DNA of 64,000 nucleotides, from IMG/VR virus record IMGVR_UViG_3300020465_001196, one strand, 5' to 3'. The DNA is from a virus (lineage: Duplodnaviria > Caudoviricetes). The notes below the pieces were generated by a model, which was not told the DNA's origin, did not search any database, and saw only the letters and a program-made list of their open reading frames with translations. Of this stretch, positions 7,314 through 20,271 are shown piece by piece; position 1 is the first letter of the stretch, and each line of letters opens with the position of its first letter. A program made the position numbers and the translations under genes.

Positions 7314-7886
7314 TTAATCCTTTTGTTTTTCAACAACCTGTTCTATTAGGTTGGATGCTTGTCTTTGTCTATACCTCTCTAAGTCTTGATCTAATCTAAA
7401 ATACTGAAATTTTAATATTGTACTTGTAATTAATCCTGTCAACGTTGTATATAGTGCTGTCGACATACCAACTGCCATTCTTGCTAATGCGGCCTGAACT
7501 GAAGATACGTCAGCAATATTAATTCCGCTGAATGCTCCAGCTAACATTAATATAAATCCAGATACAGTTCCAATTAGACCTAATGTTAATAAAATATCTG
7601 ATGCAAACCAACCTGGTTCATGTCTTGTATCTAAATTATCTAATTTTTTTATATCACCATTTGCAAGTTGACTTAATTTCCAACTTTCATAACCACAATG
7701 AAACGTCATTGCATAAAAAATAGATAGTATAAAAAAAGATAATTTTGTTTTATCGTTTTGCCATAGTAACTCATGTACTTGAAAATTTATTAATAATGCT
7801 GTTGCGGCAAATAATAAACAAAAAAACCACCACCATTTTAAAAAAATTCCGTGTTTTTTTATTTTAGTTACGTTCATTGTTAACAA
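7314..7886 (-). CDS. MotA/TolQ/ExbB proton-channel family protein
   Basis: LTLGLIGTVSGF...GMSTALYTTLTGL signature, four TM helices. Confidence 0.85.
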   Translation of the reverse strand: MLTMNVTKIKKHGIFLKWWWFFCLLFAATALLINFQVHELLWQNDKTKLSFFILSIFYAMTFHCGYESWKLSQLANGDIKKLDNLDTRHEPGWFASDILLTLGLIGTVSGFILMLAGAFSGINIADVSSVQAALARMAVGMSTALYTTLTGLITSTILKFQYFRLDQDLERYRQRQASNLIEQVVEKQKD

Positions 7887-7976: not shown

Positions 7977-9860
7977 TTATTTTTTAACTTCTTCAAAGTC
8001 TGCATCAACAACATTATCGTTGTTTTTAGTATCATTAGAAGTATTTTCTGATGTTTGCTGTTGTTGGTCTTTATACACAGCCTCTCCTAATTTCATTGCA
8101 GATTCAGTTAAAGATTTTACTTTATCATTAATATCTTGATTATTTTCAGATTTTAATGCTTCTTTTAATGCAGTAAGATCATCTTCAACTTTCTTTTTAT
8201 CTTCAACAGATAGTTTGTCGCCGTGTTCTTTAAGAGTTTTTTCAGTAGAATGTACTAATGTATCTGCTTGATTTCTAGTTTCTACTGTTTCTCTTTTTTG
8301 TTTGTCAGCTTCTTTGTTGGCTTCAGCGTCTTTAACCATTTGTTCAATGTCAGCATCACTTAATCCACCTGATGCTTGTATTTGTATCTTCTGTTCTTTG
8401 CCAGTGCCTTTATCTTTTGCACTAACATTTACGATACCATTAGCATCAATATCAAATGTTACTTCAATTTGAGGTACACCTCTTGGTGCAGATGCAATAC
8501 CTACCAAGTCAAAGTTACCTAGTAACTTATTATCAGCGGCCATTTCACGTTCACCTTGCATTACTCTAATAGTAACTGCCGTTTGACCATCATCAGCAGT
8601 TGAGAATACTTGACTTTTCTTTGTTGGAATAGTTGTATTCTTCTCAATTAGCTTCGTGCATACACCTCCAAGTGTTTCAATACCAAGTGATAACGGTGTT
8701 ACATCTAAAAGTAACACATCTTTAACATCACCTTGTAATACACCACCTTGAATTGCGGCTCCAATTGCTACTACTTCATCTGGATTTACACTTTTATTTG
8801 GTTCTTTACCAAAAAAGTCTTGAACTGCTTTTTGAACCTTAGGCATTCTTGTCATACCACCTACAAGAATAACTTCACTAATGTCTCCAGCACTAAATCC
8901 TGAATCTTTTAGAGCTTGTTTACATGGTTGTAAACTTTTATCAACTAAATGATCAACCAATGCTTCAAATTTAGCTCTTGTTAATTTAAGATTTAAATGT
9001 TTTGGTCCAGATTTGTCAGCAGTAATAAATGGTAAACTAATATCTGTTTGTGTTGCAGATGATAATTCACATTTTGCCTTTTCTGCCGCCTCTCTTACAC
9101 GTTGAAGTGCAAGATTATCATTTTTTAGATCTACACCTGAGTCTTTTTTGAACTCTGCTAGTATATAATCTACTAATGCATTGTCAAAATCTTCACCACC
9201 CAATGATGTATCACCATTTGTTGACTTAACTTCAAATACTCCGTCACCTATTTCTAAAATAGAAATATCAAAAGTACCCCCACCTAAGTCATATACAGCA
9301 ACCGTACCAGTTTTTTTCTTATCTAACCCGTAAGCAAGTGCCGCCGCAGTTGGTTCATTCACAATTCTTTCAACTTCAAGTCCTGCAATTTTACCTGCAT
9401 CTTTAGTTGCTTGTCTTTGTGAATCGTTAAAGTACGCAGGAACAGTAATAACCGCTTTAGTTACTTCTTGTCCTAAATACTTTTCTGCTGTTTCTTTCAT
9501 TTTTTGAAGAACGAAAGCCGAAATTTGTGATGGTGAGTATTTTTCGTTGTTAGCTTCTACCCAAGCATCTCCATTTTCCGCCTTTACAATTTTAAATGGT
9601 GATGTCTGTATGTCTTTTTGTACAGAATCTCCATCAAATTTTCTTCCTATTAAACGTTTAGAAGCAAAAACCGTATTAGTAGGATTTGTAACAGCCTGTC
9701 TTTTTGCTGGTGTACCTACTAATTGTTCATCTCCAAACGATACTACAGATGGTGTTGTTCTAGTACCTTCTGCATTTTCTATAACTTTGGCTCCCTTACC
9801 TTCCATAATGGATACGCAAGAGTTTGTTGTACCTAAGTCAATACCAATTATTTTACTCAT
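7977..9860 (-). CDS. dnaK: Hsp70 chaperone DnaK
   Basis: [54 protein letters not shown]-terminal DADFEEV. Confidence 0.99.
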
Positions 9861-19715: not shown

Positions 19716-19742
19716 ATGTTTCTCCTGTTTCTAACGGCAGAG

Positions 19743-19772
19743 TGTTTTGTGAGGGTTGACGTTGAGTCCTCA
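19743..19772 (-). promoter_or_regulatory. Candidate preQ1-I-like hairpin/pseudoknot in queD leader
   Basis: UGAGG-ACUCAACGUCAAC-CCUCA-CAAAACA between promoter and AGGAG SD; only partly matches the consensus. Confidence 0.35.
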
Positions 19773-19801
19773 TATGCAAAGTGCGTTGTATCATAATGTA
19801 T

Positions 19802-19830
19802 ATAATACACTCAACAACGCACCTTGTCAA
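19802..19830 (-). promoter_or_regulatory. sigma70-type promoter TTGACA-17-TATTAT for queD, bracketed by a 9-bp inverted repeat
   Basis: -35 at 19825-19830, -10 at 19802-19807; GTGCGTTGT (19781-19789) / ACAACGCAC (19814-19822). Confidence 0.75.
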
Positions 19831-19839
19831 GAAGATTAC

Positions 19840-20120
19840 TTATGTGGGTCAAAATCCTTTGTTATATTGGATTCTTTCCCTCTTAAGTAGTGTTTAGATG
19901 GTTCGTAGGATAACCATCTTTTGAACTTTTTCACCTGATCCGACTGGTCGGCTGGCTCTTTCAACGATCTTTGCTGTTTACTAAACACAGCATTGAGCAT
20001 TAAGATCCCGTCGCCCATGGATCTAAATATTTTTTCCATAGACTTATACTCCAATTATTAATTGGGATCGGCTTACCGTCTTTTGATGTAATCTGAGGCG
20101 TTGGGCTTACTACCATTTGT
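19840..20120. ncRNA. Candidate structured non-coding RNA (overlaps doubtful ORF 19836-20054)
   Basis: Six short inverted repeats in about 220 nt, GC content visibly above background, no recognisable protein motif. Confidence 0.35.
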
Positions 20121-20137
20121 ACTTATATTTTTTCTCT

Positions 20138-20158
20138 AAAAAGAAGCCTATAATAGGC
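20138..20158 (-). terminator. Possible terminator downstream of rplK
   Basis: Minus strand GCCTA-TTA-TAGGC followed by TTCTTTTT. Confidence 0.45.
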
Positions 20159-20271
20159 CAAATTTTAAATCCAAAATTGTCAAGACTATATTAATAGATT
20201 TATTCGAAAACAAATTATTTCAAAAATGCTGATATGCAAATAATACATAACAAAATTATTTTGCTATGCGT

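Follow-up and report, generated by a model that had tools for sequence, protein, structure and literature searches.

Evidence for a conserved microprotein gene with an apparently folding-shaped mRNA between rplK and queD of a marine jumbo phage

Between rplK and queD of a marine T4-like jumbo phage, comparison of homologues points to a conserved gene for a basic microprotein of 67 amino acids (aa), the coding sequence of which appears to be shaped by RNA folding, up to paired amino acid changes. A sequence-only reading of the 64,000 nt stretch of DNA analyzed here (denoted the window) had proposed a novel structured non-coding RNA (ncRNA) at this site. The observations behind that proposal were confirmed and the interpretation is partly supported, in that RNA structure appears to be under selection, but the element is not non-coding. 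The false ncRNA call is thus removed, and two uncatalogued objects take its place, namely, a microprotein motif family and a folding-shaped mRNA. The motif family occurs in both podophages and myophages that infect the most abundant bacteria of the ocean and is carried by cultured pelagiphages, so that its function is testable.

The minus strand of the window encodes EF-G, a cold-shock protein, Smr, uL11 and QueD. Because the nearest named cellular match to this uL11 is Ca. Fonsibacter, we infer a SAR11-like host. Homologues of the element were gathered via uL11 relatives, DNA patterns and protein searches, yielding 49 full-length copies (35 distinct), all of which belong to one phage clade; the cluster to which the encoded protein belongs comprises over 128 members. 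The element is present in one copy per genome and, in the loci examined, follows rplK and precedes a queD-type gene. Genome-wide counts (gene ranking, promoter boxes, complementary targets) were made in a complete relative, G003 (328 kb, with terminal repeats), for which ARAGORN made 17 calls, including a permuted tmRNA at 94952–95270 (locus L561; tag ADENLALAA). Some lineages place extra micro-ORFs ahead of the microprotein gene: a cassette between rplK and this gene (L002:3549–3890, L216:6820–7200, L245:3697–4010, and L366:1620–1865) comprises an 18 aa MWPYT peptide, ORFs of 48–61 aa, and a 55 aa ORF that we take to be DUF3563-like. The cassette sits behind another late-promoter-like box and is absent from the window. 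Searches with the element against annotated phages (blastn and tblastn) gave chance matches only, as did, among the matches listed outside the clade, a search with a leader pattern against 185,579 genomes and IMG/VR; a leader covariance model found 0 matches outside the clade in the collected loci and 151 alphaproteobacterial genomes.

The reading frame extends over 204 nt, from an ATG at 20039 behind a Shine-Dalgarno motif to a TAA at 19836 (Table 1). The sequence-only reading had listed a 72 aa ORF, the upstream TTG of which occurs in 2 of the 35 homologues, so that the ATG appears to be the true start; the ATG of a second, upstream 38 aa ORF is likewise found in just 2 of the 35. Of the 35 distinct homologues, 34 retain the start, frame and stop, with protein lengths of 59, 60, 62, 67, or 71 aa and every indel in-frame; the sole exception, L365, comes from a contig in which rplK, too, is frameshifted and in pieces. 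Relative to the window sequence, dN/dS is 0.11–0.27, indicating purifying selection, the variable columns are distributed 36/23/52 over the three codon positions, and serine codons switch from AGT to TCT or back. When pooled, pN/pS amounts to 0.30 in this frame vs. 1.1–1.9 in four alternative frames; a value of 0.36 was obtained, as expected, for the mirrored antisense frame, which contains stops. In L366, the middle third of the gene is replaced by unrelated AT-rich sequence, still in frame, and whereas the length of the leader varies freely, without frame constraint, the coding part stays in frame. Because the homologues retain the frame, with such dN/dS values and serine codon swaps, the non-coding half of the earlier claim fails. 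A pure structured RNA with an incidental ORF would account for a folding z score of about −3.7 and for a GC-rich region conserved at the nucleotide level, but in addition to the conserved frame, the protein motif is common to unrelated DNA and G003 has its own, separate tmRNA; this reading is scarcely credible and already largely refuted.

Table 1. Features of the microprotein locus and its flanks, ordered 5' to 3' along the minus strand (positions in the window).
Feature	Positions	Strand	Remarks
Terminator-like hairpin and T-run, closing the upstream rplK-side transcript	20145–20159	−	Similar hairpin in relatives
T4-late-promoter-like box	20120–20127	−	TATAAGTA in the window, TATAAATA in some lineages
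5' leader, about 75 nt, variable length	20040–20117	−	
Leader block A	20097–20106	−	9/10 columns invariant; predicted to pair with codons 9–11, or locally with block B
Variable-length leader hairpin	20077–20100	−	Constant C-A mismatch at base; GNRA-capped in one lineage
Leader block B	20071–20080	−	10/10 columns invariant
Shine-Dalgarno motif GGAG	20049–20052	−	Weakly paired with upstream UCCC
Putative gene for 67 aa basic microprotein	19836–20039	−	N-terminal amphipathic helix and KRWLSYEPSKHY motif
Start-codon hairpin, pairing start codon with codons 7–8	20015–20041	−	Six pairs, 204/204 cells
Codons 9–11, GC-rich partner of leader block A	20008–20015	−	Predicted to close multiloop around Shine-Dalgarno motif and AUG
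Internal 7 bp hairpin with invariant UCCUACG loop (19904–19910)	19897–19918	−	238/238 cells paired
C-terminal coding hairpin, containing the 19853–19873 stem	19846–19880	−	Compensatory in main lineage
sigma70 promoter of queD	19802–19830	−	11/12 consensus matches; separate from microprotein unit
Inverted repeat around queD −10 box	19781–19822	−	z −5.3; short U-run after it in most lineages
preQ1-I-like H-type pseudoknot candidate, queD leader	19733–19772	−	Separate element

The six stems on which the ncRNA proposal was based are all present (19853–19873, 19896–19919, 19940–19951, 19972–19992, 20003–20024, and 20051–20065), and the partners of a proposed long-range GATC pairing were located at 19937 and 20065. 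A repeated 7-mer, at 20070 and 20104, is GTAAGCC on the minus strand, and the GC content is indeed above background (0.39 vs. 0.32 for the window). As had been noted, the element does not match tmRNA, RNase P, SRP, 6S RNA, or group I introns: with Rfam covariance models, at both thresholds, nothing reached the gathering score and only chance matches were found up to E 10, so that the RNA shape is uncatalogued, and ARAGORN found no tmRNA at the element. Two stems are nevertheless broken in many homologues that retain the protein frame, with CCAATT/AATTGG (20051–20065) intact in 4 of 34 and AGATCC/GGATCT (20003–20024) in 17 of 34; those at 19940–19951 and 19972–19992 hold in most sequences but fail in divergent ones. 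Likenesses to RNase P (P12, CR-I), group I intron P7, tmRNA, the L11-binding rRNA domain, and the fluoride, glutamine and c-di-GMP riboswitches were dropped, given the wrong order of elements, the lack of a model match and the coding nature of the region. A sensor of queuosine-read codons was rejected as well, since Y/H/D/N codons, counted by hand, are not abundant in the ORF and a separate promoter serves queD.

The region from 19830 to 20125 has folding z scores of −3.73 on the minus strand and −3.57 on the plus strand, with none of 200 dinucleotide shuffles as good, and a z of −3.5 or below was reached by 4 of 200 same-size segments of the 64 kb, placing the element in about the top 2%. Minus-strand segments of 282 nt starting at 8320, 54720, 31360, and 34560 fold as strongly or more strongly (z −4.2 to −5.3, 16 shuffles each). 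GC3s of the gene is 0.44 vs. 0.12 for the window, and the third-position GC of the G003 orthologue is the highest of 319 genes (0.43 vs. 0.12). Among columns with an invariant amino acid, the codon is also invariant in 10 of 23, compared with 10 of 71 in queD (p 0.006) and 10 of 87 in rplK (p 0.001) from the same genomes, in Fisher tests that treat columns as independent. TCC, which makes up 0.8% of the serine codons of the window, never varies at codon 44 and hardly varies at codon 7. Of five lineages in which the synonymous codons of the gene were permuted, three lost stability (z −3.3 to −3.9), with z −1.2 and −1.3 in the other two. For the whole transcript, z is merely −0.5 to −1.0 in L001, L251, and L363; the leader alone is no better than shuffles (z −0.13), and the 5' 114 nt have a z of −0.85.

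An exhaustive helix search identified just two fully kept helices of more than 5 bp, the start-codon hairpin and the 19896–19919 hairpin minus its outer pair; for comparison, none of seven 6 bp hairpins in queD and none of six in rplK is fully kept. The start-codon hairpin survives amino acid changes in L362 and L363. In the internal hairpin, one pair occurs as U-A, U-G, and C-G, and the UCCUACG loop is invariant in 34 of 34 homologues, even at dS above 1.7. The hairpin itself follows in part from Arg-Trp and Pro-Ser codons, and a 5 bp version is found in unrelated family members, but these codons do not account for the invariance of the loop. A third helix, between the leader and the coding sequence, is present in both the MFE and centroid structures of the 5' 114 nt. 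In the resulting three-helix model, 612 of 612 cells are paired, vs. 29–52% when the model is slid along the alignment, a control that is biased in its favor because that very alignment served to select the model. Formal covariation is weak: a double change is seen in one pair, and the score is reached by 30 of 500 shuffles. The three-helix structure is accordingly consistent with the alignment, not proven. The AUG has an unpaired probability of 0.14 or less in 8 of 10 lineages tested and is less paired in L362 and L363. At the C-terminal end, the 19853–19873 stem is paired in 170 of 175 cells (7 pairs in 25 main-lineage sequences). Here, C-G is replaced by U-A through two synonymous substitutions, and in L002 there is a switch from G-U to C-G by which two amino acids are altered; other lineages form a different hairpin, from other sequence, at this site. 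A long-range 7 bp pairing of the leader loop with the stop region, present in the MFE structure, was discarded as not conserved (intact in 19 of 34). The structural half of the earlier claim holds because of the synonymous over-conservation, the three kept helices and these compensatory changes.

These observations also bear on the simplest alternative, an ordinary microprotein gene in which the hairpins merely stabilize the mRNA or arise as a side effect of the protein motif, with no regulation at the start site. We consider this unlikely: the weak covariation, the uneven folding excess across lineages and the contribution of Trp and Pro codons to the internal hairpin would all fit, but it would not account for the two leader blocks that do not vary, for an invariant codon as rare as TCC, or for a start-codon hairpin that is kept despite amino acid changes.

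Upstream of the gene, a TATAA(G/A)TA box precedes the leader in all homologues aligned. In G003, the A form (TATAAATA) has 26 occurrences outside long ORFs and 3 within them, a distribution that points to a T4-type late promoter motif; the G variant, which is the form in the window, shows no such enrichment outside long ORFs in G003, and the window box is, judging by its position, presumably the promoter of the microprotein mRNA. Block A has two mutually exclusive predicted partners, block B locally (with the constant C-A mismatch) or codons 9–11. In L366 (1919–1960), an 18 nt unit of the leader hairpin is tandemly duplicated, which suggests that this hairpin is a modular element. Block B further shows a 7 bp complementarity to the 3' strand of the queD pseudoknot (19733–19740), which may be due to chance, as this strand is absent in L362 and L363. 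The inverted repeat at 19781–19822, in which a base pair varies between G-C, A-U, and G-U and which is kept even in L362 and L363, is a candidate for the 3' end of the microprotein mRNA and could be a terminator or a DNA operator; the distance from the box to this hairpin suggests an mRNA of about 340 nt. The pseudoknot candidate in the queD leader is kept in the clade and at least at 15 of 80 other phage queD loci, with no Rfam match. In L362 (490–537) and L363 (542–997), there is no pseudoknot leader, and the gene that follows seems to encode a QueD-type protein of another kind, extended at its N-terminus.

The two exclusive partners of block A, together with the start-codon hairpin, provide the layout of a folding-timed or factor-gated translation throttle. 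We lean, by a modest measure, toward a late-promoter mRNA the folding of which hides its own start site and throttles production of the microprotein. In this mechanism, the phage would transcribe the gene late, as an mRNA ending at the 19781–19822 hairpin. During RNA synthesis, block A would first pair locally, leaving a time window for ribosome loading; once codons 7–11 emerge, the start codon would become paired and block A would re-pair with codons 9–11, in a helix that closes a multiloop around the Shine-Dalgarno motif and the AUG, so that translation is throttled. A factor binding to the invariant block B could reopen the start site, and the downstream hairpins would stabilize the message.

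The throttle leaves block B and the UCCUACG loop unexplained, so that two further readings have to be weighed. It is possible but rather doubtful that the element is a dual-function RNA of the phage, or carries a leader of a new class that senses a ligand or a protein, and that it controls, in a jumbo phage with SAR11-like hosts, an uncatalogued microprotein that mimics the host; if the leader or the loop did sense or act in trans, this would add a class of regulatory RNA in phages. Taken singly, an RNA that encodes the microprotein and also pairs in trans with host or phage mRNAs, via the anti-SD-like UCCUACG loop or block B, is distinctly unlikely. The invariance of the loop, the promoter-like box and 3' hairpin of the unit, and precedents of dual-function RNAs with a pairing region that overlaps the coding sequence (PMC12612679) argue for it; however, a crude complement search of G003 alone gave no convincing target, and the loop could pair in cis with codons 8–9, in a 4 bp helix kept in all sequences. 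A leader that is an uncatalogued riboswitch or protein-sensing aptamer, in which blocks A and B form a pocket with C-A mismatches and switch the leader-coding sequence helix, appears quite improbable. Invariant blocks that flank a variable hairpin, the exclusive pairings of block A, and the neighboring queD with its own riboswitch-like leader would suit such a switch, but riboswitches usually spread over genes and lineages, whereas this leader, without an Rfam match, is confined to one copy per genome, one gene context and one phage clade.

The predicted protein has a charge of +5 and an amphipathic N-terminal helix followed by KRWLSYEPSKHY. Contrary to the view that the ORFs here lack recognizable motifs, it contains the motif W-x-x-YEPSKHY, which recurs in microproteins of cultured Pelagibacter phages. 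YEPSKHY marks a wider set of proteins, 37–60 aa in length, that are encoded in marine sequences, among them other myophages and small phage contigs that carry DNA polymerase A. One of these proteins matches the Pelagibacter phages HTVC021P, 048P, 103P, and 104P (E 5e-11 to 1e-9); the HTVC021P homologue is gp56. In other phages the motif is encoded by unrelated DNA, and the family members lie inside gene arrays, without the leader. One match to the family, L547:2501–2599 (HTVC103P 7320–7418), does not coincide with the start of an annotated gene and could be a small gene missing from the annotation. The family is absent from the Pfam, PHROG, and NCBIfam catalogues searched, with no profile match to the 67 aa protein above threshold, and the PDB contains no significant match. 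A similarity to the TonB C-terminus was not significant (E 0.7–0.9), the AlphaFold model (pLDDT 59) was too poor for a fold search, an Atlas search gave no usable match, and literature searches for the protein motifs found nothing.

These properties also bear on a type I toxin mRNA of the hok or AapA type with an antisense antitoxin. It would share a small ORF, a highly folded mRNA and a start site sequestered by intra-ORF sequence, as in aapA3 (PMC6733600), but the protein has no transmembrane helix (best 19-residue hydropathy 0.2–0.8, 1.6 in one lineage), no plus-strand sigma70 promoter was found over the region, and the family members elsewhere are the leaderless genes described above; a toxin is thus very improbable. 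The protein is probably a short-motif effector, with its basic amphipathic helix and YxPxxHY, that binds a host membrane or protein, and its motif was probably copied from one also carried by alphaproteobacteria. A related Y[RQ]PExHYMRGPG motif ends small ORFs in 6 of 401 alphaproteobacterial genomes, whereas a control pattern had 0 matches. These microproteins and those of the Pelagibacter phages share a basic N-terminal helix followed by a Y-x-P-x-x-H-Y-hydrophobic motif; they are uncharacterized hypothetical proteins of 37–60 aa without the leader of the 67 aa gene, and kinship with the alphaproteobacterial ones is suggested by the short motif alone.

With respect to known systems, the leader of the MS2 maturation protein gene provides a parallel for the proposed throttle: the several hairpins of this leader are closed off, over the ribosome binding site, by a long-range helix, which creates a kinetic translation window. 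The resemblance is in mechanism only, as MS2 is an RNA phage of unrelated sequence. In the Helicobacter aapA3 mRNA, the 5' UTR and intra-ORF sequence pair with the start region and thereby conceal it (PMC6733600); the phage element likewise has a small ORF in a folded mRNA with a predicted hidden start region, but it lacks a transmembrane peptide and a detected antisense promoter, and belongs to a late-type phage unit. Spot 42/SpfP and AzuCR pair in trans, for which the phage element is a candidate at most, but in these RNAs, as apparently in the phage element, overlapping constraints at the RNA and the protein level act on a single short transcript (PMC12612679).
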